NCBI GenBank assembly: GCA_016186695.1 | Contig: JACPLC010000001.1 | Span: 32,284-96,283, forward strand | Reading direction: 5' to 3' | Length of the DNA: 64,000 bases | Source of the DNA: Candidatus Kaiserbacteria bacterium | GTDB taxonomy: Bacteria; Patescibacteriota; Minisyncoccia; Phycocordibacterales; UBA2100 | Shown here: positions 31,090 through 63,765 of the stretch, piece after piece | How the letters are laid out: the number at the start of each line of letters is the position of its first letter | Position numbering within the stretch: the first letter of the stretch is position 1 | Notes under the pieces: model-generated | The model's input: the letters and a program-made list of their open reading frames with translations, nothing else | The model's database searches: none | Told to the model about the DNA's origin: nothing | Made by a program: the position numbers and the translations under genes

Positions 31090-32538
31090 ATGAGTTCGAT
31101 GCTACGCTCTACTGGCTTATGGGTATCCACGTTAGCGATTGCCGCTTTTCTGCTCGGCTTTTCGCTCGCGCATGCTGCGAGTACCATATGGAGCACTACG
31201 TTCACGGGCGGCTGTTGGAGTTGCCAGCAGGATGTGCCGACCGGTGTCTGGGGTTCGGCCATTAACGGTCAGGTACAGGTAGAGTATCTTGCAGAAATTG
31301 AACGTCTTACTGCAGACGGCAGCCCGACAGGTATTCTCATTCTTCCGGGAGATTCTATTCCCGTCGGGACAAAAATGAAACTGAAGTTTGTTCCGCACCA
31401 CTACACCCATATCTCATGGTTTGCGACCGGCTCCGCCTGGGATTCTCCGTATGGTTGTTGGAAGGAAGAAGGGTTTAGGCTGGGAGGAAACAGTGCTTAC
31501 GGTGAGTCCGGTGTGTGCACCGGAGAGCTAATTACGGTTTCGATAAGTGTTGACCAATCGTTTCTGTATGGCAGTTTGGTTTTTGCAGTAGTTGTTGATC
31601 CCCCGAGTAAATCTGTACAGGGATACCAATCGCATCTCTCGTGTCAGAGTGCAGGCGGAGGCGATCTGAATTGCACGGCGACGAATCCCGGAGAAGTCGA
31701 GCCGCAGTTTGTTTTCTCGCAGACGCCATGGAGTGGATACGAATCCGGTGCGCCGGGAGGAGGTCAGAGTGTCGGGGGATTCGTACCTGAACGAACCATT
31801 CCATACCCTATAACAATCACCGACGTTGCTCCTTCGGCCACTCCGGATCCCGAATGTACGGGTGATTGTGTTCCGGGGTCTCCCTCGAAGCCGACTGTGT
31901 CTCCTGTAGTTGTTTCCGGTTCAGCGCAATGTACTGTCGGTATTGGCTACTCAATTTCAATCACAGCCTCCGACCCCGACGGTGACGACATCAAGTACGG
32001 AGTGGACTGGGACGCAAATGGCACGGTGGACCAGTTTGCCCCTGCGACGGGCTACGTCCCCTCAGGCACAAGCCAGACAGTCTCACGCACATACGCCACA
32101 GAGGGCTCGAAGACCGTGAAGGTGATGGCAATAGATGACAACGGTCTCACCTCAAGCTGGACCACTCTCACCTTCTCCTGCACTGACGAAGGAAGCGAAG
32201 CACAAGGAGCAGGCGAGAACCTCGGAGACGACGAGGATACAGGAGGTGGAGGAGACAGTGGAGCCACCCCCAACCTCACGATCCGTGCTATTCCTTCACT
32301 CGTCAGATCCGGTGAGACCACCAAGCTCCACTGGAGTGCCTCCAACGTCACTGCCTGCACCGTCACCGGCGAGAACGGCGACAGCTTCGAAGGCACTATA
32401 TCCGACGAACCAACAGGGAACGAAACCTCTCCCATCACCGCCCAAACCACCTACACCCTCTCCTGCGAGGACGACGATGGCAACACCCTCACGCAATCCA
32501 CAACCGTGAACATCCTTCCTGTGTGGAGTGAGTTTTAA
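31090..32538 (+). CDS. Secreted protein with signal peptide and PKD/Ig-like domain (the listed GTG at 31078 is replaced by ATG 31090)
   Basis: Signal MSSMLRSTGLWVSTLAIAAFLLGFSLAHA. The PKD-like sequence ITASDPDGDDIKYGVDWDANGTVDQ...TVKVMAIDDNGLTSS is present. Confidence 0.65.
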   Translation: MSSMLRSTGLWVSTLAIAAFLLGFSLAHAASTIWSTTFTGGCWSCQQDVPTGVWGSAINGQVQVEYLAEIERLTADGSPTGILILPGDSIPVGTKMKLKFVPHHYTHISWFATGSAWDSPYGCWKEEGFRLGGNSAYGESGVCTGELITVSISVDQSFLYGSLVFAVVVDPPSKSVQGYQSHLSCQSAGGGDLNCTATNPGEVEPQFVFSQTPWSGYESGAPGGGQSVGGFVPERTIPYPITITDVAPSATPDPECTGDCVPGSPSKPTVSPVVVSGSAQCTVGIGYSISITASDPDGDDIKYGVDWDANGTVDQFAPATGYVPSGTSQTVSRTYATEGSKTVKVMAIDDNGLTSSWTTLTFSCTDEGSEAQGAGENLGDDEDTGGGGDSGATPNLTIRAIPSLVRSGETTKLHWSASNVTACTVTGENGDSFEGTISDEPTGNETSPITAQTTYTLSCEDDDGNTLTQSTTVNILPVWSEF

Positions 32539-32557
32539 GGTGTATTATTCAAGTCAC

Positions 32558-34045
32558 ATGTCAAGATACATGCTCTTTGCGAAACGATCACTGATTCTTT
32601 TAGGAGCGATGGGCGTCGCGGTGTTTCTCATGCTCGCTTCGTTCGCGTATGCGCAAAGCCCCACTTCTGGTGATTCGATCGAGAATTTTCCTGGTCCGTC
32701 GAGTGTTGCAGCGCCCACAGGCACCGTAAACTGCTTCGACTACTACCGGTTTGGTTCCGTGCAGGCCAACATCGCCGCGCAAACCTCGTCGGCTGTTTCC
32801 GGCACCCCCATTACCTTTACCGGCACGCTCGAAAATCAAAACTCGTATCCCATCATCGACGGCGCGCTCTATGTCAAAGTGTTCCGCCTGCGCGACAACC
32901 CGCGCGAGAAAAACGTGAACGGTCCCTTTGTCGTCGATCAGTTCTTCGTGCGCGACGGTATCAATCTTCCTGCGGGCGGACGCATGCCCCTCATCTTTAC
33001 CTGGGACATACCGAGCTACACCCCGAGCGGCCGCTATGAAGTCGCCACCTTCTTCACGACTTCGAAGAAGTACAACCTTCTCGGCCTCTCGTTCACTGAC
33101 GACGTAGTAGGAAACCGCGCCGGATTCAGCGTTGTCGGTGAGATACGCGACATCGTTGCGTTCGACAAAGACAAGGTTTCGGTAGCAGGCGGCACGTATC
33201 GTTTCGCGGCGTTTCCTCCGCGTGTCAGCACAACAGCCCCGGTGCCCATTGAGGCAGTCGTCATGAATGAAACTGATACCGATGCGCACGTCTCAATCCG
33301 CTGGCAGGCATATGCGTGGGATCAGGGCCGCTTTGAAAACCTTGTCGCGCAGGATACGCAGTCGGTGATCGTGCCAAAAAACGGCACTGCGCGCGCATCG
33401 TATACGGTGACGGATGCGCGCTACCCCGTCTACCTCGTCGTGGGCACGCTCTCATGGCAGAACACGCAATCTGTTATCAATGTCCGTTTTGTGCGAGAGG
33501 GAATAGACCGCACACGCATCAACTTTCCCGGTATCACTGCTTTCCCGCTCGTTGCAGGGGAGGCCACGACCCTCTTCTCGTGTTTGCACAACAGCGGCGA
33601 GAGCGCGGTCGTAAAAAACGGCAGGCTTGAGCTCAAGCTCTCGGGCGGGTGGGGAAGGACGATACACGAGTATGTCTACGAAGGAGACGTGACGGGCGCC
33701 ATGATGGGAGTAGCCGACGTGTTCACGCCAAAGACCGGCTACAACGCTCTCACTCTCGACGCGATGCTCTACCAAGACGGTGTTCTCGTTGACGAGGCGC
33801 ATCTCACCTACGACTGCGCAGCCATCGATCCATCGTCCTGTCTTCCCGACAGCGAAACAAGAGGTGCGTTTACCCTGTTCTCATTCGCCGGTGACTCATC
33901 GCTCCCCGCAATTATCGGGTCGGCGCTCGTCATCCTTCTCCTTGCGCTCCTTGCCGCGGCACTTCTGCGACGTCTCGGGAAGAACAGGGACATACCGCCC
34001 CCACCCCCACCCCCACCTCCACCTCCGGCATTTCCGACCCAGTGA
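32558..34045 (+). CDS. Cell-surface protein with N-terminal signal, C-terminal TM anchor and poly-proline tail
   Basis: Signal MSRYMLFAKRSLILLGAMGVAVFLMLASFAYA. C-terminal IIGSALVILLLALLAAALL RRLGKNRDIPPPPPPPPPPPAFPTQ. Confidence 0.65.
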   Translation: MSRYMLFAKRSLILLGAMGVAVFLMLASFAYAQSPTSGDSIENFPGPSSVAAPTGTVNCFDYYRFGSVQANIAAQTSSAVSGTPITFTGTLENQNSYPIIDGALYVKVFRLRDNPREKNVNGPFVVDQFFVRDGINLPAGGRMPLIFTWDIPSYTPSGRYEVATFFTTSKKYNLLGLSFTDDVVGNRAGFSVVGEIRDIVAFDKDKVSVAGGTYRFAAFPPRVSTTAPVPIEAVVMNETDTDAHVSIRWQAYAWDQGRFENLVAQDTQSVIVPKNGTARASYTVTDARYPVYLVVGTLSWQNTQSVINVRFVREGIDRTRINFPGITAFPLVAGEATTLFSCLHNSGESAVVKNGRLELKLSGGWGRTIHEYVYEGDVTGAMMGVADVFTPKTGYNALTLDAMLYQDGVLVDEAHLTYDCAAIDPSSCLPDSETRGAFTLFSFAGDSSLPAIIGSALVILLLALLAAALLRRLGKNRDIPPPPPPPPPPPAFPTQ

Positions 34046-34122
34046 TCCTAAAGAGCTAAAGAGCGCGTTGTCAACACGTCGGGAACTTCCCGCGCGGGTT
34101 GAAGATTTTGCGCAGTATACTA

Positions 34123-34590
34123 ATGCATATGTATACGAAGGCCACGCGAAGAGGTGCGGCGTTCCTCGTTGCCCTCATACTTCTCATGGGATTTGTGACG
34201 CTTGCGTTCGCGCAGGATAGCACTGATCTGCAGGCAACGATCCGTGCAGCAATTCTTTCTGATCCGCGTTCATCCGGTATGACCGAAGAAGAGATCGACG
34301 CGATGGTGGCAGCACTTGCCTCGGAAGCAGAAATGCAGGGCGTTACCTCCCAAGATATCATGTGGCGGCCGCAGGATCCGGCTTCTTTCGACGAGGTCGG
34401 AAGTGGCTCGGGTGAAACGTGCGGGTACTCCGCATTCCTCTGTGCTCTGAACGATGCATTTGGCTTCAGCGGCTCCCCACTCATCATCCCGCTCTTGCTC
34501 GGGGTTTGCTCCGCACTTCTTCTTTTTGTTCTCGGTTCCATTCTCCTGCACACGCACGGTCACCACCCCGTACGCGGCTCGCTCTCGTAG
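34123..34590 (+). CDS. Small secreted/membrane protein (signal plus C-terminal TM helix)
   Basis: The listed start was TTG. The ATG at 34123 gives MHMYTKATRRGAAFLVALILLMGFVTLAFA. A C-terminal hydrophobic helix and an HTHGHH sequence follow. Confidence 0.45.
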   Translation: MHMYTKATRRGAAFLVALILLMGFVTLAFAQDSTDLQATIRAAILSDPRSSGMTEEEIDAMVAALASEAEMQGVTSQDIMWRPQDPASFDEVGSGSGETCGYSAFLCALNDAFGFSGSPLIIPLLLGVCSALLLFVLGSILLHTHGHHPVRGSLS

Positions 34591-37290: not shown

Positions 37291-37313
37291 TTTCTGTATA
37301 GTTGCTCACTTGT

Positions 37314-37670
37314 ATGTCCCGATCACTCAAAAAAGGCCCGTATGTCGACGAAAAGCTGATGAAAAAAATCAGCGCCCGAAAGCCTGCACAAGGCTCTATA
37401 AAGACGTGGGCACGTGCATCGCAGATCCCGCCGGAGTTCGTCGGCTACACATTTGCCGTACATACGGGAAAGAGCTTCGAGGAAGTCTTCGTGACCGAAG
37501 ATATGGTGGGGCATCGCCTCGGCGAATTTGCACCGACAACAAAGTTCATCAAGCACGGCGGTCGTATGCAGAAGGAAGCAGAAATGGCCGCAAAGGCTGC
37601 TGAAATCACAGCGGCGCAGGCCGCTAAGGCAACTACCGAGGCGGCAAAAGCTCCCGCAGCCCCCAAATAG
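37314..37670 (+). CDS. rpsS: 30S ribosomal protein S19 with a C-terminal Ala/Lys-rich tail (the listed TTG at 37302 is replaced by ATG 37314)
   Basis: [18 protein letters not shown] is the S19 N-terminus. The tail reads [30 protein letters not shown]. Confidence 0.9.
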
Positions 37671-37671
37671 T

Positions 37672-37825
37672 CTATGCCCGGTAGTGAAATGTGCCTTAGG
37701 CTTACACAAATTATGAAAACAAATAACGAATACATACAAAGTGCAATGAGTGGGAATCGGTCGCTCACGCCGCGGCAGCACGGCATGCCGGCTGCCGCAA
37801 AGGCACATTCTACTAACCGGGTATG
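37672..37825 (+). mobile_element. MITE-like or structured inverted-repeat insertion of about 150 nt between rpsS and rplV. Its terminal arms are tatgcccggtagt... / ...actaaccgggtatg, and the right arm ends at the rplV ATG.
   Basis: A long stem of about 22 bp (atgcccggtagtgaaatgtgcc / ggcacattctactaaccgggtat) encloses about 105 nt. A second copy with the same termini lies at 43384-43526. Confidence 0.55.
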
Positions 37826-38218
37826 AAAGCGCTCCTGAAAAATTATCACCAATCGCCGCGCAAAGTGCGGCTCGTCGCCGATTTGATACGTGGCAAGTCG
37901 ATCGCGGATGCGCGAGCGGCGCTCCTCTATCTTCCCAAAAAATCTTCTCCTGTGCTTGGCAAACTTCTCGATTCGGCTGTCGCAAATGCGCGCAGCCGCG
38001 GAGCCACGGCCGAAAATCTTTTCGTAAAAACGATAACGGTCGACAAAGGTGCGGTGCTGCGCCGCTATCGCCCGTTCGCTCGCGGGAGAGCAGGCAGCGT
38101 CCGAAAGACAATGAGCATTATTCGGCTTGAACTGGGGACCGCGTCTCCTCCGAATGCAGCTTCGGCGGGCAAAGCCGGCAAAAAGAAATCTTCCTCGAAG
38201 CTAAACGCTAAACGCTAA
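37823..38218 (+). CDS. rplV: 50S ribosomal protein L22 with a K/A/S-rich C-terminal tail
   Basis: L22 family sequence. Confidence 0.9.
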   Translation: MKALLKNYHQSPRKVRLVADLIRGKSIADARAALLYLPKKSSPVLGKLLDSAVANARSRGATAENLFVKTITVDKGAVLRRYRPFARGRAGSVRKTMSIIRLELGTASPPNAASAGKAGKKKSSSKLNAKR

Positions 38219-38229
38219 ACGCTATTTCT

Positions 38230-38931
38230 ATGACTCACGTTGTCCATCCATACGCACATCGTCTCGGCGTCATCCGCGACTGGAAAAGCCGCTGGTTTGC
38301 AAAAACTCCTAAAGAGTTCCGCGTGAATGTGATGGTTGACGCTGCGATACGACGTTTCCTCCGGAAGCGCCTGCGCGGGCACTACATCACCTCGGTGGAG
38401 ATCGAGCGGAGCGAAAAGCACATCCGATGTTTAATCAAGACCTCGCGCCCCGGTCTTGTCATCGGCCGCGGCGGAGAAGGCTCGACGAAACTCACGAAGG
38501 AGATCGAGGAGATCGTCCGCAAGGTGCCGAACGCACCGAAACTCTCGGTGCGTCTCGATATCGAAGAGGTACGCTCTCCCGAGAGTCAGGCGCCTGTCGT
38601 TGCCTACATGGTTGCCGAGGGTCTCGAAAAGCGACAGACGTTCCGCCGCGTACTCAAGCAGACCGTCGAGAAAGTGATGGCCAATCGTGATGTACAGGGT
38701 GTGCGTATTGCAATTGCCGGCCGCTTGGGCGGAGCGGAGATGTCACGCTCAGAGGAGATAAAGAGAGGCCGCGTGCCGCTTCAGACAATTCGTGCCGATA
38801 TCGATTTCGCCCGCGAGATGGCGTATCTGCCCTACGGCGTCATTGGCATCAAAGTCTGGATCTATCGCGGAGAAATATTTGCGGACGAGAAAAAGTCCGC
38901 CCAAGGCGGATCGGCCTCGGGCCGAAAATAA
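38230..38931 (+). CDS. rpsC: 30S ribosomal protein S3
   Basis: S3 KH plus C-terminal domain sequence, 233 aa. Confidence 0.95.
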   Translation: MTHVVHPYAHRLGVIRDWKSRWFAKTPKEFRVNVMVDAAIRRFLRKRLRGHYITSVEIERSEKHIRCLIKTSRPGLVIGRGGEGSTKLTKEIEEIVRKVPNAPKLSVRLDIEEVRSPESQAPVVAYMVAEGLEKRQTFRRVLKQTVEKVMANRDVQGVRIAIAGRLGGAEMSRSEEIKRGRVPLQTIRADIDFAREMAYLPYGVIGIKVWIYRGEIFADEKKSAQGGSASGRK

Positions 38932-38934
38932 TCT

Positions 38935-39357
38935 ATGCTTGCACCCAAAAAAGCGAAATTCAGAAAATGGCAGACAGGCCGCCGCCATGAGCGCAGGCAG
39001 CATGCGCCTGAAACCCGTGGCATCACGGTTGCCTTCGGGGCGTTCGGGCTTCGCGCGATAACACCCGCGCGTCTTACCTCCAATCAGATAGAATCGGCAC
39101 GTCGTGTTTTGGTGCGCGCAGGCGGAAAGACTGCAAAAGTGTGGGTCCGCGTATTTCCCGACAGGCCGTTCACCCAAAAAGCAGCCGAAGTCGGCATGGG
39201 GAGCGGGAAGGGCGACGTCGCAGGCTACGTTGTCGAAGTGCGCCCGGGGAGGGTGATCTTTGAGATCGACGGAGCGCCTGCCGATATGGCGCGCGAAGCG
39301 CTGCGTAAAGCCGGCACGAAACTTCCCTTAAAAGCACGCGTCGTTGCGCGACAGTAA
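38935..39357 (+). CDS. rplP: 50S ribosomal protein L16
   Basis: L16 family sequence. Confidence 0.95.
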   Translation: MLAPKKAKFRKWQTGRRHERRQHAPETRGITVAFGAFGLRAITPARLTSNQIESARRVLVRAGGKTAKVWVRVFPDRPFTQKAAEVGMGSGKGDVAGYVVEVRPGRVIFEIDGAPADMAREALRKAGTKLPLKARVVARQ

Positions 39358-39367
39358 GCAAATCGCT

Positions 39368-39565
39368 ATGAAAAAGGTTGAGTACACATCTTGGAGTGCG
39401 GAAGATCTGAATAAGGAGATCGCGGAGAAACGCGAGGCCTTGAGGAATTTCCGCTTCGGCGGAGCAGGAAGCCGCACGCGCAACGTTCGTGAAGGCCGCA
39501 ACCTCCGCAAAGAGATCGCGCGGATTCTCACCGAACTTCGCAGCCGCGAGACGTCACGGCAATAA
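39368..39565 (+). CDS. rpmC: 50S ribosomal protein L29
   Basis: The ATG at 39368 is in frame with ORF 39344..39565. The sequence is L29-like. Confidence 0.85.
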   Translation: MKKVEYTSWSAEDLNKEIAEKREALRNFRFGGAGSRTRNVREGRNLRKEIARILTELRSRETSRQ

Positions 39566-39571
39566 CAGCAT

Positions 39572-39832
39572 ATGGAAACCACTCAAAAACAAGGCAAGAT
39601 TCTTTCGGGAATCGTCGTGAAGGCGGCGATGAAAGACACGGTGACCGTACTTGTGGAGCGCTACGTGATGCATCCGAAATACAAAAAGTACCTGCGGAGA
39701 GGGAAGAAGTATCTCGTGCACGATCCGGGGAATAGCGCGAAGGTTGGTGACAAAGTCACGATCCACGAAGCTCGTCCGATCTCCAAGCGGAAGCACTTCG
39801 TCATTGTCTCGAGGCCGGACGATCGAAGCTAG
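39572..39832 (+). CDS. rpsQ: 30S ribosomal protein S17
   Basis: S17 family sequence. Confidence 0.9.
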   Translation: METTQKQGKILSGIVVKAAMKDTVTVLVERYVMHPKYKKYLRRGKKYLVHDPGNSAKVGDKVTIHEARPISKRKHFVIVSRPDDRS

Positions 39833-39841
39833 AAACTATAT

Positions 39842-40222
39842 ATGTTGCAAGATCGCTCACTCGTTAAGATTGCTGATAACTCCGGCGGCATCGTCGGCAG
39901 GATCTTCAAGGTCCTCGGCGGCTCGCGAAAGCGCGCCGCGGAGATCGGCGACGAGGTTGTCATCTCGATACAGACCGCCCAGCCGCGAAAGCTCGTCAAG
40001 AAAAAAGAGGTGCACCGGGCTGTTATCGTGCGTCAGACAAAACCGTACCGGCGTTCCGACGGCTCCTACGTGCGCTTCGACGAGAACGCCGTTGTCCTGA
40101 TCGCGGGAACCGGAAAGGAACCGAAGGAGCCGAAGGCGAATCGCGTCTTCGGGCCCATTCCGCGCGAGCTCGCCCTGCGCGGCTATCAGAAAATCGCATC
40201 GCTTGCGCCTGAAGTCGTATAA
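39842..40222 (+). CDS. rplN: 50S ribosomal protein L14
   Basis: L14 family sequence. Confidence 0.95.
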   Translation: MLQDRSLVKIADNSGGIVGRIFKVLGGSRKRAAEIGDEVVISIQTAQPRKLVKKKEVHRAVIVRQTKPYRRSDGSYVRFDENAVVLIAGTGKEPKEPKANRVFGPIPRELALRGYQKIASLAPEVV

Positions 40223-40228
40223 ATCTGT

Positions 40229-40540
40229 ATGAAATTACGTAAAGGAGATAAAGTGATAGTAATTGCAGGCAAGGAACGCGGGAAAACCTCGACGATCGTT
40301 CGCGTGTTGCCGCAGGAGAATCTCGTAATCCTCGACGGGCTCAATCTTTCGAAGCGTCACCGGCGCCCTTCAGCACAAAATCGCAAGGGTCAGATCATCG
40401 AACGCGCGATGCCGATGCACGTATCGAACGTCATGATCGTCGACCCAAGGTCCGGGAAGCCCACGCGTGTGAAATTCAGTCGCGACAAAGAAGGCACTCG
40501 TATTCGCATCGCAGTCAAAAGCGGGCAGGAGATCAAATAA
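40229..40540 (+). CDS. rplX: 50S ribosomal protein L24
   Basis: L24 KOW sequence. Confidence 0.9.
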   Translation: MKLRKGDKVIVIAGKERGKTSTIVRVLPQENLVILDGLNLSKRHRRPSAQNRKGQIIERAMPMHVSNVMIVDPRSGKPTRVKFSRDKEGTRIRIAVKSGQEIK

Positions 40541-40543
40541 TCT

Positions 40544-41080
40544 ATGAACGCAACCTCACACAAAACGATGTTCGACGTGATGAAGGGCGATTTTGGCTAC
40601 ACCTCGCCCATGCAAACGCCGCGTGTGGTAAAAATCATAGTTTCAAGCGGTGTTGGCAAAGCCAACAAGGATAAAAAGCGCATGGATCTCATCGTGGATC
40701 GCCTTGCACGCATCACGGGCCAAGCGCCCGCACCTCGTGGCGCCAAAAAGGCGATCGCGAACTTCAAATCACGCAAGGGTGACATCGTCGGCTATCAGGT
40801 GACTTTGCGTGGCGCACGTGCCGCGGCTTTCTTAGAGAAACTCATTCATATTGTCTTTCCGCGCACCAAGGACTTCCGCGGCCTGAAATCTTCCTCGATC
40901 GATGAAATGGGGAATATCACCATTGGTATCAAGGAGCACACGGTATTTCCGGAAACAGCGGATGAGGACTCGAAGGACATATTCGGCCTCGCCGTAACGA
41001 TCGCCACGACTGCCAAAGACAAGAAAGAAGCCGAAAGCTTTCTCCGCCACCTCGGTCTCCCGTTACGCGAAGCAAAATAA
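40544..41080 (+). CDS. rplE: 50S ribosomal protein L5
   Basis: L5 family sequence. Confidence 0.95.
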   Translation: MNATSHKTMFDVMKGDFGYTSPMQTPRVVKIIVSSGVGKANKDKKRMDLIVDRLARITGQAPAPRGAKKAIANFKSRKGDIVGYQVTLRGARAAAFLEKLIHIVFPRTKDFRGLKSSSIDEMGNITIGIKEHTVFPETADEDSKDIFGLAVTIATTAKDKKEAESFLRHLGLPLREAK

Positions 41081-41261
41081 GTTTGACTTCTAACCGTATC
41101 TCGCGTATATTTTGCAGGCCTCGCAGGGGGCTTTGTTTTTAAATGATCCTGAGCGTAGTCGAAGGATATCGTAAGAACAAGGTCACGCAGGAAGCTTCCG
41201 TAACGTAGTCCGTAAGGACACGTGCAGGAGCTTCAAGCTTCTCCTTTCGCGGCGCACATTC

Positions 41262-41447
41262 ATGGCAAAAAAGTCACTTATCGTTAAGGCAAACCGAAAG
41301 CCGAAGTTCTCTTCGCGCACGGTGCGGCGCTGCTTCAAATGCGGCCGGCCGCGCGGTTTTATGCGCGATTTCAATCTCTGCCGTATCTGCTTCCGCGAGG
41401 AAGCTTTGGAAGGAAATATTCCAGGAATAAAAAAGAGCTCATGGTAA
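41262..41447 (+). CDS. rpsN: 30S ribosomal protein S14 type Z (zinc-binding, 61 aa)
   Basis: C-x2-C ... C-x2-C arrangement [20 protein letters not shown]. Confidence 0.9.
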
Positions 41448-41833
41448 ACGATCCCGTCGCAGATCTGGTTGTTCGACTCAAGAACGCCGCAGCGATCGGC
41501 AAGCCGTCTGTTTCGGTACCCTTTTCTAATTTCAAACTTGCGATCGCAGAGACGCTAAAAAACGCGGGCTACGTGAAAACGGTGGAGAAGAAAGGAAAAA
41601 AGGTAAAGAAGGTGCTCGACATCACGCTCACCTACAATGAGGGCAAACCGGCGATTTCTGGCGTGAAGCGCATCTCCAAGCCGGGGAGGCGGGTATACCG
41701 CGGCGCGCGCGAGCTCTTCGCGATCCGCTATGGTCACGGCGCTCTCATCCTCTCGACACCAAAAGGGGTGCTGACGAATGCAGATGCGCGTAAGCAAAAG
41801 GTCGGAGGAGAGGCGCTTTTTGAGGTTTGGTAG
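41441..41833 (+). CDS. rpsH: 30S ribosomal protein S8
   Basis: The ATG at 41441 overlaps the rpsN stop. The sequence is S8 family. Confidence 0.9.
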
Positions 41834-41860
41834 TTCGACTACGCTCACTATAAATAATGT

Positions 41861-42406
41861 ATGTCGCGCATAGGAAAAAAGCCAATTCAGATCCCCTCGG
41901 GCACCGATGTGTCGGTTGGCTCTGGCGAGGTGATCGTAAAAGGGAAAGGCGGCACACTAAAGCGCACGGTTCATCCGGCGGTTGCGATATCGATTGCAAA
42001 CGGAGAGGTGACTGTTGCACCCGCATCCGAAAGTCGTCTTGCGCGCGCACTCTGGGGCACGTATGCAGCGCATGTGCGCAACATGATCGCGGGCGTGAAT
42101 ACTCCGTTTACGAAAAAGCTCATTGTGGAGGGTATCGGCTATCGTGCGGAAGTTGCAGGTAAAGCACTGAAGCTTTCGGTCGGTTTCTCCCACCCCGTGC
42201 TTGTTCCTGTGCCCGAAGGCGTAACCGTTTCGATCGACAAAGGAACTATCGCGATCGTAGGCGCGGATAAAGAGAAGGTTGGTCAGTTTGCCGCCGCAGT
42301 GCGCGCGAAACGCGTACCCGAGCCGTACAAGGGCAAGGGCATTCGCTACGAGGACGAAGTGGTGCGTCGCAAGCAGGGCAAGAAGGCAGCTGTCGCAGCG
42401 GCATAA
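41861..42406 (+). CDS. rplF: 50S ribosomal protein L6
   Basis: L6 family sequence. Confidence 0.95.
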   Translation: MSRIGKKPIQIPSGTDVSVGSGEVIVKGKGGTLKRTVHPAVAISIANGEVTVAPASESRLARALWGTYAAHVRNMIAGVNTPFTKKLIVEGIGYRAEVAGKALKLSVGFSHPVLVPVPEGVTVSIDKGTIAIVGADKEKVGQFAAAVRAKRVPEPYKGKGIRYEDEVVRRKQGKKAAVAAA

Positions 42407-42424
42407 CATTTTTCATTTGAGCAT

Positions 42425-42772
42425 ATGACACTTGCAATAAAACAACAGAAACGACAGAGGCGGCACCGGCGAGTGCGTGCAAAAGTTTTTGGCAACGCGA
42501 AGCGGCCGCGTCTTTCGATTTACAAATCGAACACCGCGCTCCTTGTGCAGATAATTGATGATTCAAAAGGAGCGACCCTAGCGTCAGTTTCCTCGGCGAA
42601 GGAATTGGGAAAGACGCCGCTTGAGCGTGCGGAAGCCGCTGCATCTACACTCGCGAAGCGTGCTAAAGAAAAGGGCATCCGCGCCGTCGTCTTCGACCGA
42701 GGTGGATTCCAGTATGTAGGGTCGATAAGGGCGTTTGCCGATGCGGCGCGTGCAGCCGGATTGGACTTCTAA
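42425..42772 (+). CDS. rplR: 50S ribosomal protein L18
   Basis: L18 family sequence. Confidence 0.9.
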   Translation: MTLAIKQQKRQRRHRRVRAKVFGNAKRPRLSIYKSNTALLVQIIDDSKGATLASVSSAKELGKTPLERAEAAASTLAKRAKEKGIRAVVFDRGGFQYVGSIRAFADAARAAGLDF

Positions 42773-43381
42773 ATGTATATGACAACTGAACACAACATCG
42801 AGGAAGTCGAGGTAACATCGGTCCCTGCGGAAGTATCTGCCGCACCGGAAGAAAAGGCTATACCGGAGGAGCGGCCGGAGCGAAGACAATTCACCCGCGG
42901 ACGCAGGAGAGGTCCCCGCGGGGAGCGCGGCCGTGGGCGCGACGACCGCCGGAGCGAATTTGCACAGAAGTTGATAGGCATCCGGCGTGTTGCGCGTGTC
43001 ATGGCGGGCGGACGTCGCTTTAATTTTTCTGCCGCGCTCGTCTTGGGAGACAAAAAGGGGCGCGTCGGTGTCGGCGTCGGCAAGGCAGCGGATACTGCAC
43101 TTGCGATAGAGAAAGCGACTCGCGCGGCGAAAAGATCCATGATCACGCTGGATCTCAAGGAGGGGAGGAGCATCCCGCACAACGTCGAAGCGAAGTACTG
43201 CGCGTCGCGTGTCGAGATCCGTCCCTCGCCGGGACGCGGTCTCGTCGCGGGCTCATCCGTGCGCACTGTCTTGGAGCTCGGCGGTGTGTCGGATGTTACG
43301 GCGAAGATCCTCTCGCGAAGCCATAACCCAATCAACAACGCGCGCGCGGCTATCGAGGCGCTGCGAAAAATTTCGAAATAA
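42773..43381 (+). CDS. rpsE: 30S ribosomal protein S5 with an N-terminal acidic/basic extension
   Basis: S5 dsRBD plus C-terminal domain sequence. Confidence 0.9.
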   Translation: MYMTTEHNIEEVEVTSVPAEVSAAPEEKAIPEERPERRQFTRGRRRGPRGERGRGRDDRRSEFAQKLIGIRRVARVMAGGRRFNFSAALVLGDKKGRVGVGVGKAADTALAIEKATRAAKRSMITLDLKEGRSIPHNVEAKYCASRVEIRPSPGRGLVAGSSVRTVLELGGVSDVTAKILSRSHNPINNARAAIEALRKISK

Positions 43382-43383
43382 AA

Positions 43384-43526
43384 CTATGCCCGGTAGTACA
43401 ATTTCGAATCGCCTTGGTATGAATAATCACCAGACTATGACAAGACAAACCACGTCATCGGTATTACTAAGCGTGCGCAGTTGGAGCCGCGGCAGTAATT
43501 ATTCGAAATTGTACTAACCGGGTATG
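43384..43526 (+). mobile_element. Second copy of the MITE-like or structured IR element, between rpsE and rplO. It has the same termini as the first copy, the right arm ends at the rplO ATG, and no L30 gene is present here.
   Basis: Arms tatgcccggtagtacaatttcgaat / attcgaaattgtactaaccgggtatg. The inner stem differs from copy 1 but is still complementary. Confidence 0.55.
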
Positions 43527-43991
43527 CAACTCAACCAATTACATCGTCCCAAAAATCTGAAGCGCGGAAAACAGCGTGTGGGAAGGGGTCAATCCAGCGG
43601 CCGCGGCAAACAATCGGGTCGTGGCGGCAAGGGCCAGACCGCGCGCGCCGGTGCGAAGATCCGCCCCGAGTGGCGCGACATCATCAAGAGACTTCCGAAG
43701 CGGCGCGGTTTTGGCAAAAACCGCGGGCGTACTGTCGTAGGGACTCGCCCCGACGCACTTGCGCTCTCCGTAGGACGTCTTGAGAAACTCTTTGAATCAG
43801 GGGCGACTGTTTCTTCGGCTACGCTCTCGGAGCGTGGCGTCGGGGGGAGGAAATTTCGGTCGGTTAAGATTGTCGGCCCCTCAAATTCGCTCGGGGCAAG
43901 CGGTTTTACGAAGAAATTGACTATCAAGGGAATCGCGGTTTCTACGTCGGCCCGCGCGGCTATCGAAAAAGCCGGTGGTAGTATCATGTAA
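43524..43991 (+). CDS. rplO: 50S ribosomal protein L15
   Basis: L15 family sequence. Confidence 0.9.
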   Translation: MQLNQLHRPKNLKRGKQRVGRGQSSGRGKQSGRGGKGQTARAGAKIRPEWRDIIKRLPKRRGFGKNRGRTVVGTRPDALALSVGRLEKLFESGATVSSATLSERGVGGRKFRSVKIVGPSNSLGASGFTKKLTIKGIAVSTSARAAIEKAGGSIM

Positions 43992-63243: not shown

Positions 63244-63407
63244 TCGTGAATTATAGCTCTGCTTCGCATAAAGCTTCGCAGAACAGGTCCTACTTCGCTC
63301 CTGACGGAGCTACGAAGGACACTGCTTCGTTGCAAACAAAAATAGCTACCCTATGTCGAGCAGCTATTGTTGTGCCAGTGCTTGCACTGCGAAGCCTTGG
63401 CGAAGCA

Positions 63408-63765
63408 GTGGAGGTGGGGGGAATTGAACCCCCGTCCAGAGAAAAACAGTATGTATGCTTCTACGATGCGTAGATCATCTTGAGGTTTAAATAGCGCGCG
63501 TAAAAGATGAACCAAATCGCGCGATATCGAGTCCTTGTCTTAGATATCGTTTGGACATTCGACATCAGTGCTTGAGAGAAGTGACGCCCGACGGATTCTA
63601 CTCAAGCGTCGAATCCGTGGACGGCCTGTCGAGGCTGTTTTAAGCGTACGCAGGCGCAAATGCTACTTTGTTCGCATTTGAATTTGTGCAGCGAGTTTGG
63701 AAAGCGTGCTGCAGCTTTGCATGCACACACATATGTCGATTTCCCTGTCGAAGCCAGTCACCCCC
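63408..63765 (-). ncRNA. ssrA: tmRNA (ssrA), about 358 nt, with a G3:U70 acceptor stem, T-arm GGGGG-UUCAAUU-CCCCC and tag reading frame GCG-AAC-AAA-GUA-GCA-UUU-GCG-CCU-GCG-UAC-GCU-UAA (ANKVAFAPAYA). The CCA end is not encoded.
   Basis: The reverse complement of 63741-63765 gives GGGGGUGACUGGCUUCGACAGGG, the tmRNA 5' consensus. The 3' end GGACGGGGGUUCAAUUCCCCCCACCUCCA is the tRNA-Ala-like end. smpB lies immediately upstream on the same strand. Confidence 0.85.

Follow-up and report, generated by a model that had tools for sequence, protein, structure and literature searches.

A family of miniature inverted-repeat elements on start codons in Candidatus Kaiserbacteria and related bacteria, and its probable role as a translational relay

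Introduction

How can a ribosomal protein operon remain functional when long inverted-repeat inserts end exactly on the start codons of two of its genes? This question is raised by a 64-kb stretch of DNA from Candidatus Kaiserbacteria (candidate phyla radiation, CPR, also called Patescibacteria), hereafter the window, in which the S10/spc operon carries one insert between rpsS and rplV (E1) and another between rpsE and rplO (E2); all coordinates of E1 and E2 are on the + strand. CPR bacteria have tiny, gene-dense genomes, are generally thought to be poor in mobile elements and make weak use of Shine-Dalgarno sequences. Inserts on the start codons of core genes (those for ribosomal proteins, secA, secY, infB, rpoD or mreB) should be lethal unless translation is preserved. 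[quoted passage not shown]

We report here that E1 and E2 are insertions into the TATG found at gene starts within the S10/spc operon, and that each insertion duplicated this TATG. The two elements belong to two sub-lineages of one MITE family, a group of non-autonomous DNA transposons that occurs widely in Candidatus Kaiserbacteria and in related CPR bacteria. Taken jointly, the sequence comparisons argue that this family, sitting on start codons, probably acts as a translational relay by termination and re-initiation.

Results

Using short motifs taken from the ends of the elements, we found that ATGCCCGGTAGT occurs exactly twice in the window (at 37674 and 43386) and that ACTAACCGGGTATG also occurs exactly twice (at 37812 and 43513), for a chance expectation of 0.13. 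These motif positions and the Pfam-identified flanking genes confirm the two inserts at rpsS/rplV and rpsE/rplO that an earlier examination of the letters (the sequence-only reading) had placed there, and its claim that the final ATGs are the start codons of the downstream genes also held, with L22 beginning at 37823 and L15 at 43524. E1 and E2 have identical termini, are each flanked by TATG, and share 63% identity overall, concentrated at the termini. Comparing both copies verified that their inner stems are copy-specific yet self-complementary, and the loop core GCCGCGGCAG described as shared is indeed present in both. A covariance model search of the window returned E1 and E2 only, with no third copy.

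The history of the two junctions was read from the contigs encoding the closest L22 relatives, namely L003 and L004 (L22 92% identical to that of the window) and L005 (85%). The S19/L22 junction of L003 and L004 is tight, AAATAA-TC-TATG-AAAGCC (AAATAATCTATGAAAGCC), as is the S5/L15 junction of L003, AAATAG-TATG-CAGCTCAACC (AAATAGTATGCAGCTCAACC), which reads TAG TATG CAG CTC AAC C; the junctions of L005 are as tight as those of L003 and L004. The window reads AAATAG-TC-TATG-(CCCGG...CCGGG)-TATG-AAAGCG at S19/L22 and AAATAA-AAC-TATG-(CCCGG...CCGGG)-TATG-CAACTCAACC at S5/L15, so that the window junctions minus the element and minus one TATG are the junctions of the relatives. Searching the loci of L003, L004 and L005 with the covariance model recovered no element copies. 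The check for empty sites proposed by the sequence-only reading thus found both window sites empty in these relatives, with the predicted pre-insertion sequence.

Two earlier observations are changed by this comparison. Since the empty-site sequences place TATG outside the element, the G-U pairs at the stem base stem from the TATG duplication; from the 'G-U pair and one-base bulge' described at the stem base, the bulge stands (it is the extra T of the right repeat), while the G-U pair belongs to the flanking repeat and not to the element. The second observation was that E2 sits where the L30 gene (rpmD) would normally be. However, rpsE directly adjoins rplO in relatives without the insert and L30 is missing there too, so the position of E2 is unrelated to rpmD and the match of places is a coincidence.

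The pattern CCCGGTAGT-N(100-130)-TACTAACCGGG, with flanks deliberately left unconstrained, was scanned in one genome per prokaryotic species and then in metagenomes and viral contigs. The species genomes yielded 47 loci, 44 of which lie in 28 CPR metagenome-assembled genomes (up to 5 copies per genome) assigned to Kaiserbacteria, Parcubacteria, Paceibacteria, Wolfebacteria and unclassified Patescibacteria. The 3 further loci (2 in Rheinheimera and 1 in Mucilaginibacter) were taken as chance matches because they show neither inner-stem complementarity nor flanking repeats. In metagenomes, at least 120 contigs, mostly from groundwater, matched the pattern, and the viral contigs gave no match. 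After duplicate removal, we retained 133 distinct exact-pattern copies, the metagenome part being drawn from the matches listed; species-genome copies formed the discovery set and independent metagenome copies the replication set. The covariance model applied to the collected loci identified 8 more diverged copies.

The copies are 126-147 nt in size and their sole open reading frame (ORF) is a 31-50-codon spacer that is not conserved. Their outer 9-10 nt are invariant (termini CCCGGTAGT / ACTAACCGGG), and the next ~12 nt are lineage-specific and complementary within each copy (GAAATGTGCCTT/AAGGCACATTC, GTAATTTCGGCT/AGCCGAAATTC, ACAATTTCGAAT/ATTCGAAATTG, GAATGTTGGCGA/TCGCCAACATC, and others), so that in the alignment of copies the terminal stem comprises 20 pairs, 10 with double-sided compensatory changes. 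Perfect 4-nt direct repeats flank 89 of the 133 copies and represent 19 sequences (TATG 47, CAAG 11, CAAA 5, CATA 4, TGTA 4, TGAA 3, CACG 2, TACA 2, and eleven singletons), 88 of the 89 fitting YNNR. Among them, 42 copies carry repeats other than TATG (18 sequences) and left equals right copy by copy. Repeats of 5 nt, TATGA, were found in 14 copies, whereas CATG on the left is paired with TATG on the right in 7 copies, never reversed, and CTTG with TATG in 1. We assign the family to MITEs (general definition in PMC3184786) on its terminal inverted repeats, variable target duplications, small size, dispersed copies and empty sites. Of the two interpretations offered by the sequence-only reading, the MITE-like mobile element targeting (T)ATG is the one supported by empty sites and by dispersed copies with terminal inverted repeats and target duplications; many copies with target-site duplications, which that reading regarded as favouring a plain MITE, are indeed what we found.

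The nearest copies at other loci are 85-88% identical to E1 and 70-75% identical to E2, which indicates an old, diversified family and not a recent burst. Adjacent copy pairs occur solely in L012 and L023, and neither is a head-to-tail array. The search for a transposase or autonomous element with these ends, using long-spaced pairs and solitary ends in 1.2 Mb of collected loci as well as viral contigs, found none; the solitary or long-spaced ends in the 1.2 Mb were only further diverged MITE copies (e.g., L071 3138-3267). Ends starting with CC together with a 4-5-bp duplication may resemble the general features of IS1380/IS701.

Several individual loci deserve a mention. In L023, two E1-lineage copies (L023:1823-1967 and L023:2167-2308) lie 200 nt apart between near-identical flanks (AACCAGCAC(T)ATG ... 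TATGACAAAA), which looks like a local duplication of a gene 5' end plus its element; in one of the two, compensatory changes affect the outer repeat, which is otherwise invariant (CCCAGCAGT / ACTGTCTGGG). In L176, the left flank (...attgcgCAAG) is that of the L140 copy but the right flank (TATGagcccaaaacg...) is that of the L153 copy, the result either of two copies recombining or of an assembly chimera formed across the repeat. Two Logan contigs (L001:1-26 and L002:1-26, from SRR12113431 and SRR12113422) both break at the same base within E1 and start with GCAAAGGCACATTC...; as these independent short-read assemblies of the same organism end inside E1, the hairpin element fragments k-mer assemblies.

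The relation of the elements to start codons depends on the lineage. Copies bearing E1's inner stem (the E1 lineage) sit on a start codon in sense orientation in 51 of 51 cases (20/20 in the discovery set and 31/31 in the replication set), a start being called when a long same-strand ORF begins with the ATG located at +1 from the right end. (T/C)ATG precedes the element on the left, and TATG follows it in all of them but one, which carries CATG on the right. The Pfam scan of 20 downstream ORFs gave 18 with matches beginning at residues 1-18, and the right-hand ATG is therefore the true gene start; the genes concerned, many of them essential, encode SecA, SecY, IF-2 (infB), RpoD, MreB, MreC, RelA/SpoT, SHMT, ribosomal protein S8, HPPK and others. 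Four junctions of the spc region are occupied across genomes: rpsS/rplV and rpsE/rplO in the window, rpsN/rpsH in L043 and rplO/secY in L040. In the E2 lineage, 7/7 exact-pattern and 3/5 model-found copies lie on start codons, and in the other lineages 20 of 75 copies do. The main lineage away from start codons (B lineage, inner stem GTAATTTCGGCT) prefers G-CAAG, CAAA and CACG and occurs in both orientations relative to genes.

As background, 385 kb of these genomes contain ~10,015 non-coding YNNR, 292 non-coding non-start TATG and 109 start-codon TATG, and ~55% of the ATG starts in the window are TATG. Under a TATG-specific model allowing non-coding sites only, ~16% of insertions would be expected on sense start codons, compared with 51 of 51 observed. 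No extended target motif beyond YATG was detected up- or downstream of the E1-lineage sites, and upstream of them the sequence is rich in A/T, poor in G and devoid of a Shine-Dalgarno signal. The confinement of the E1 lineage to start codons could result from active targeting or from selection.

Other target sites showed features of their own. In the B lineage (e.g., L041, L080, L099, L134 and L167), the preferred target reads G-CAAG-(C/G), position -5 being G in 28 of 37 copies, and some targets form the loop or stem of a local palindrome, such as CGGAG-CAAG-CTCCG in L167. The copy at L043:1171-1302 is of the E2 lineage and lies where S14 and S8 overlap (rpsN/rpsH), its left flank being CTTG and not ATG; the S14 frame enters the element and stops at the TAG of the left repeat, which alters the S14 C-terminus. 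At L071:3138-3267, a short diverged copy with ATGGA repeats occupies a gene start, and the longest-ORF start of the downstream 281-aa gene (3199) falls within the element; inserts of this kind can thus mislead start-codon annotation.

The duplicated left ATG also opens a reading frame, a feature that had escaped the sequence-only reading. It abuts the element in 34 E1-lineage copies, and in 30 of them the frame remains open through the element, ending in 24 at the TAA of the right repeat (TAC-TAA-CCG-GGT-ATG), 6 nt before the host ATG, and in 4, including E1, at a TGA overlapping the host ATG, all four being 142 or 145 nt long with an A after the ATG. The remaining frames stop 12 nt before the host ATG (one copy) or 62 nt past it (L055). 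Stop codons per frame in the 34 abutting copies number 8 versus 57 and 115, and 30 of the 34 have no stop in the variable centre, compared with 26% of shuffles. Antisense frame 0 is open in 0 of 20 discovery copies: it reads ATG-CCC-GGT-TAG owing to the extra T in the right repeat.

A putative internal start accompanies the duplicated one, since (C/T)TATGAAAAC is conserved at position ~36 in 43 E1-lineage copies. The ORF from this internal ATG ends beside the host ATG, at TAA or at an overlapping TGA, in 42 of the 43, including all 14 copies with TATGA junctions, which cannot use the left ATG because ATG-ACC-CGG-TAG stops at once; in 3 copies with an early stop in the left-ATG frame, the internal-ATG frame is intact. 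Between the internal ATG and the right repeat, the ATG frame is stop-free in 40/43 copies, the +1 frame in 2/43 and the +2 frame in 24/43, versus 27.5% for mononucleotide shuffles. Altogether, 50 of the 51 E1-lineage copies have a stop-free frame initiated at the left or internal ATG and ending beside the host ATG; the ends lie 6 nt before the host ATG or overlap it, apart from two at 12 nt before and the one of L055 noted above. Element lengths in the lineage range from 141 to 147 nt and the centres are highly diverged, yet the frame is kept.

The encoded peptides tell a different story. They have no Pfam match, and a collection of 15 billion proteins does not contain the exact peptides. Their synonymous fraction is 0.27-0.32 versus 0.16-0.28 in control frames, and their C-terminus varies with element length (...CRKGTFY for 143/146 nt and ...AKAHSTNRV for 142/145 nt). 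As the amino-acid sequence is not conserved, the constraint bears on the open frame and not on a protein.

Folding, also proposed by the sequence-only reading, gave long terminal stems in both elements: E1 folds at -66.8 kcal/mol (z -6.84) and E2 at -52.8 kcal/mol (z -5.77), and 0 of 200 shuffles were as stable. Over the 133 copies, sense and antisense folds are equally stable (-53.8 versus -54.4 kcal/mol). A strand-specific RNA structure, hinted at by the G-U pairs, was rejected on this equality and on the origin of these pairs in the TATG duplication. The internal hairpin of the E1 lineage covaries strongly (GCGGCAG/CTGCCGC, GCGCCAAG/CTTGGCGC, GCGCAAAG/CTTTGCGC, GCGACAGG/CCTGTCGC), and the consensus fold of the lineage is 98.7% paired, versus 33-42% with shifted partners. 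Rfam cmscan found nothing over E1 or E2, either at the gathering threshold in the whole window or at E <= 1 in 37500-43700, which agrees with the failure of the sequence-only reading to recognise any Rfam-type element. Neither E1 nor E2 contains a convincing outward promoter or terminator; the sole match, a weak one (9/12), spans the left junction of E2. The features of the two loci are compiled in Table 1.

Table 1. Positions of E1, E2, their parts and their flanking genes in the window
Feature	Position	Strand	Remarks
rpsS (S19), gene 5' of E1	37302..37670	+	stop TAG 37668-37670; Pfam PF00203, E 3e-31
E1 left TATG direct repeat	37673..37676	+	ATG 37674-37676 is the native position, 3 nt past the rpsS stop
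E1, 145-nt E1-lineage copy, inner stem GAAATGTGCC	37677..37821	+	cmsearch 111.5 bits; alignment; fold z -6.84
E1 left arm, terminal stem	37677..37698	+	invariant CCCGGTAGT plus lineage-specific inner stem
E1 right arm, terminal stem	37800..37821	+	inner stem plus invariant TACTAACCGGG; the extra T bulges
E1 conserved internal ATG, context TTATGAAAAC	37713..37715	+	element position 36; in frame with the putative relay ORF
E1 internal hairpin CGCGGCAGC...GCTGCCGC	37771..37798	+	structure conserved; covariation across the E1 lineage
E1 putative relay ORF, 50 codons from the duplicated ATG	37674..37826	+	TGA 37824-37826 overlaps the rplV ATG (ATGA)
E1 right TATG direct repeat	37822..37825	+	ATG 37823-37825 is the rplV start
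rplV (L22), gene 3' of E1	37823..38218	+	Pfam PF00237; 100% identical to a Kaiserbacteria L22
rpsE (S5), gene 5' of E2	42773..43381	+	stop TAA 43379-43381; Pfam PF00333/PF03719
E2 left TATG direct repeat	43385..43388	+	matches the empty site of L003; ATG 4 nt past the rpsE stop
E2, 134-nt E2-lineage copy, inner stem ACAATTTCGAAT	43389..43522	+	cmsearch 72.7 bits; fold z -5.77
E2 putative relay ORF, 43 codons from the duplicated ATG	43386..43517	+	TAA 43515-43517 within the right terminal repeat, 6 nt before the rplO ATG
E2 right TATG direct repeat	43523..43526	+	ATG 43524-43526 is the rplO start
rplO (L15), gene 3' of E2	43524..43991	+	Pfam PF00828

Three other observations concern the window outside the elements. 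The rplE/rpsN gap (41081-41261, 181 nt) contains a sigma-70-like TTGACT-17-TATATT, a GC hairpin, TGTTTTT and ~130 nt more; it is almost invariant in three Kaiserbacteria (also L003:4186-4401 and L005:13326-13498), and its predicted consensus has 42 pairs, 5 with compensatory changes, and no Rfam match at E <= 1, making it a candidate conserved leader or small RNA before rpsN-rpsH. A tmRNA gene (63406-63765, - strand, RF00023, 130.9 bits) is the sole Rfam match of the window. Finally, the interval between rpsJ and rplC (window 32528-34590; L005:4854-6965; L008:3570-6957) holds large ORFs without Pfam match (window, 505 aa; L008, 487, 463 and 163 aa), which break the usual S10 order.

Discussion

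The reading that we favour, a MITE family on start codons relaying translation to the host gene, would operate as follows. The elements would be co-transcribed with the operon, and ribosomes would enter the spacer ORF at the duplicated left ATG, which keeps its native upstream context, by coupling or by normal initiation, or alternatively at the conserved internal TATGAAAAC. Translation of the 31-50-codon spacer, whose peptide would be irrelevant, would melt the stem that holds the host ATG. Ribosomes would then terminate at the built-in TAA, which lies 6 nt ahead of the host ATG, or at a TGA that overlaps it (ATGA), and re-initiate on the host gene, and through this relay the element would be tolerated ahead of essential genes. 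According to a recent review, spacing has no effect on coupling efficiency between -4 and +25 nt. The strict sense orientation could be explained as well, since the opposite orientation reads ATG CCC GGT TAG and stops immediately. Judging from their anatomy, the elements would be mobilised in trans by a transposase.

A number of our results weigh against this reading. The E1 lineage is absent from neutral intergenic sites while the B lineage occurs there, which tolerance alone does not explain. The +2 control frame downstream of the internal ATG is also open in more than half of the copies (24/43). Frame 0 is open in 8/14 TATGA copies that do not use it versus 29/34 users (Fisher p = 0.058), so that the open frame is partly inherited; in addition, the copies share descent and p-values overstate their independence. 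Outside the E1 lineage, the frame is open throughout in only 8/19 of the other ATG-abutting copies and in 2/5 of the E2 lineage, and these copies persist nonetheless. Predicted accessibility does not set the internal ATG (0.44) above the host ATG (0.39), and the idea of an internal start lying in an open loop was dropped for want of this contrast. To these points is added that neither a transposase nor an autonomous partner turned up in the 1.2 Mb of loci or in viral contigs.

Some of these points also favour an ordinary, tolerated MITE without any relay, in which the right-hand ATG would initiate independently and the open frame would be a relic of the master copy; for example, the weak A-U/G-U stem base might breathe, or upstream translation might melt the stem. 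Predicted ensembles already show the host ATG ~39% unpaired, 8 of the 14 copies with no use for frame 0 keep it open, early stops have not removed other lineages from start codons, and B-type copies are tolerated in tight junctions in either orientation. What an independent start leaves unaccounted for is that 50 of 51 E1-lineage copies keep an ATG-initiated frame ending within 14 nt of the host ATG or over it despite lengths from 141 to 147 nt and highly diverged centres, that the four abutting copies of 142/145 nt all have an A after the ATG, creating the needed TGA, and that the copies are 51/51 sense, with the internal-ATG frame retained in the three early-stop copies. We therefore regard the absence of a relay as unlikely.

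A device acting at the RNA level is improbable, although the very stable stems would suit it. In such a device, RNase III cleavage would leave a leaderless or near-leaderless mRNA at the host AUG, or ribosomes would shunt or hop across the stem base. Precedents for hopping and shunting are T4 gene 60 and the caulimoviruses, and RNase III processes co-transcribed MITE hairpins in the Correia elements of Neisseria. In every copy the hairpin lies between a take-off and a landing sequence that are identical, and in the 14 TATGA-junction copies the TGA of the upstream gene falls exactly at the stem base. However, the device leaves unexplained both the frame-specific avoidance of stops and the conserved internal ATG, and a mechanism that uses the hairpin only does not predict 51/51 sense copies, as antisense folds are equally stable.

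The mode of insertion could be questioned in turn, if the family were a palindrome-associated transposable element (PATE) of IS200/IS605 type, or another single-strand transposon inserting 3' of a fixed tetranucleotide, with the right TATG part of the element. The seven CATG-left/TATG-right copies, never reversed, the CTTG/TATG copy, the strict orientation of the E1 lineage and the hairpins within the element would fit. But in the 42 copies with repeats other than TATG (18 sequences), left and right match, which requires a true duplication; in the 5-nt TATGA repeats, the base that follows ATG is duplicated too, and the ends are true terminal inverted repeats instead of distinct subterminal hairpins. 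This origin is consequently very improbable.

We give almost no credence to a conserved S10/spc regulatory leader, whether for ribosomal protein autoregulation, as an attenuator or as a replacement of L30. The elements do lie within a ribosomal protein operon with start codons in the stem, but the closest relatives have these junctions without them, the same element precedes unrelated genes such as secA, rpoD and mreB, Rfam gave no match at the gathering threshold or at E <= 1, and L30 is absent with and without the insert. The selected ribosomal protein regulatory RNA put forward by the sequence-only reading as the reason for the elements is unsupported on the same grounds of empty orthologous junctions and unrelated host genes, and also of equal antisense folds. 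It is just as hard to believe that the spacer ORFs encode genuine small proteins (43-50 aa, MPGSEMCLRL...CRKGTFY): most copies do lack stops in this frame and the N- and C-termini are conserved, but these termini are translated inverted repeats, the centres show no amino-acid conservation, the frame shifts between copies, the synonymous fraction is close to that of control frames, and neither Pfam nor the protein collection gave a match. Integron attC sites were rejected by inspection, the termini CCCGGTAGT / ACTAACCGGG misfitting the core (RYYYAAC ... GTTRRRY) and the copies being dispersed with variable duplications and forming no arrays.

Returning to the translational relay, a bolder form of it is conceivable but doubtful. 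The E1 and E2 lineages might actively home to start codons, in a way that no recognisable DNA motif beyond YATG accounts for, and serve as portable translational couplers, each with its own start, a stop-free spacer and an inbuilt stop 6 nt from the duplicated host ATG, neutral or eventually indispensable before essential genes; in an exotic variant, ribosomes might cross the hairpin by hopping or shunting from one (U)AUG(A) repeat to its identical partner. If homing and coupling were true, they would represent a general strategy by which a parasite persists in ultra-streamlined CPR genomes.

[quoted passage not shown] An independent, hairpin-type example in a distant phylum would mean that it is a recurrent evolutionary solution, and the family would offer dozens of natural 'experiments' on termination and re-initiation. 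In practical terms, the elements break short-read assemblies, can seed chimeric contigs (L176) and can misplace start calls (L071).

Comparison with known systems

RPE of Rickettsia, translated in frame, and byp of Magnusiomyces mitochondria, hopped between matching take-off and landing codons, are mobile palindromic elements that persist in compact genomes because the translation machinery can cope with the insert. The present elements would share this property, but RPE and byp lie inside coding sequences whereas E1, E2 and their relatives lie at the 5' edge, where termination and re-initiation is predicted.

Correia elements duplicate TA, have 26-bp Neisseria terminal repeats, lie at variable distances from genes and act via promoters, IHF sites and RNase III. 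They are not known for strict start-codon placement or a relay ORF. The present family differs from Correia/NEMIS by its 4-5-nt YNNR duplications, its other termini and its CPR hosts. It resembles Correia/NEMIS (Neisseria) and ERIC/IRU (enterobacteria) in that all are dispersed elements of 100-160 bp that have terminal inverted repeats and target duplications, are transcribed (in the present family, presumably) together with adjacent genes and fold into long RNA stem-loops (MITE features in PMC3184786). REP2 of Neisseria likewise abuts gene starts and supplies initiation sequences to the downstream ORF, but it lacks terminal inverted repeats, and the start site fused to the gene is that of REP2 itself (PMC3184786). 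In the present family, the host ATG is retained by duplication and the ORF of the element is a separate mini-cistron.

The closest functional likeness is with MIRUs, whose small ORF has been interpreted as minimising the effect on host expression (Supply et al. 1997, summarised in PMC3184786 and PMC12548453). Both are short mobile repeats inside polycistronic operons, with tetranucleotide direct repeats and filled versus empty sites, and both stand at start codons with a small co-oriented ORF that is coupled, or here predicted to be coupled, to the flanking genes. MIRUs, however, are 40-100 bp long, belong to Actinobacteria, often form tandem arrays (variable-number tandem repeats, VNTRs) and have an ORF described as coupled at -4 nt, while the present family consists of single units of 126-147 nt with a 20-bp terminal stem in CPR hosts, in which the stop is mostly the TAA of the right repeat, 6 nt before the ATG (24/34), and only sometimes an ATGA overlap. 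The elements thus appear to work like MIRUs while differing from that family in size, in tandem arrangement, in host and in their hairpin-MITE body.

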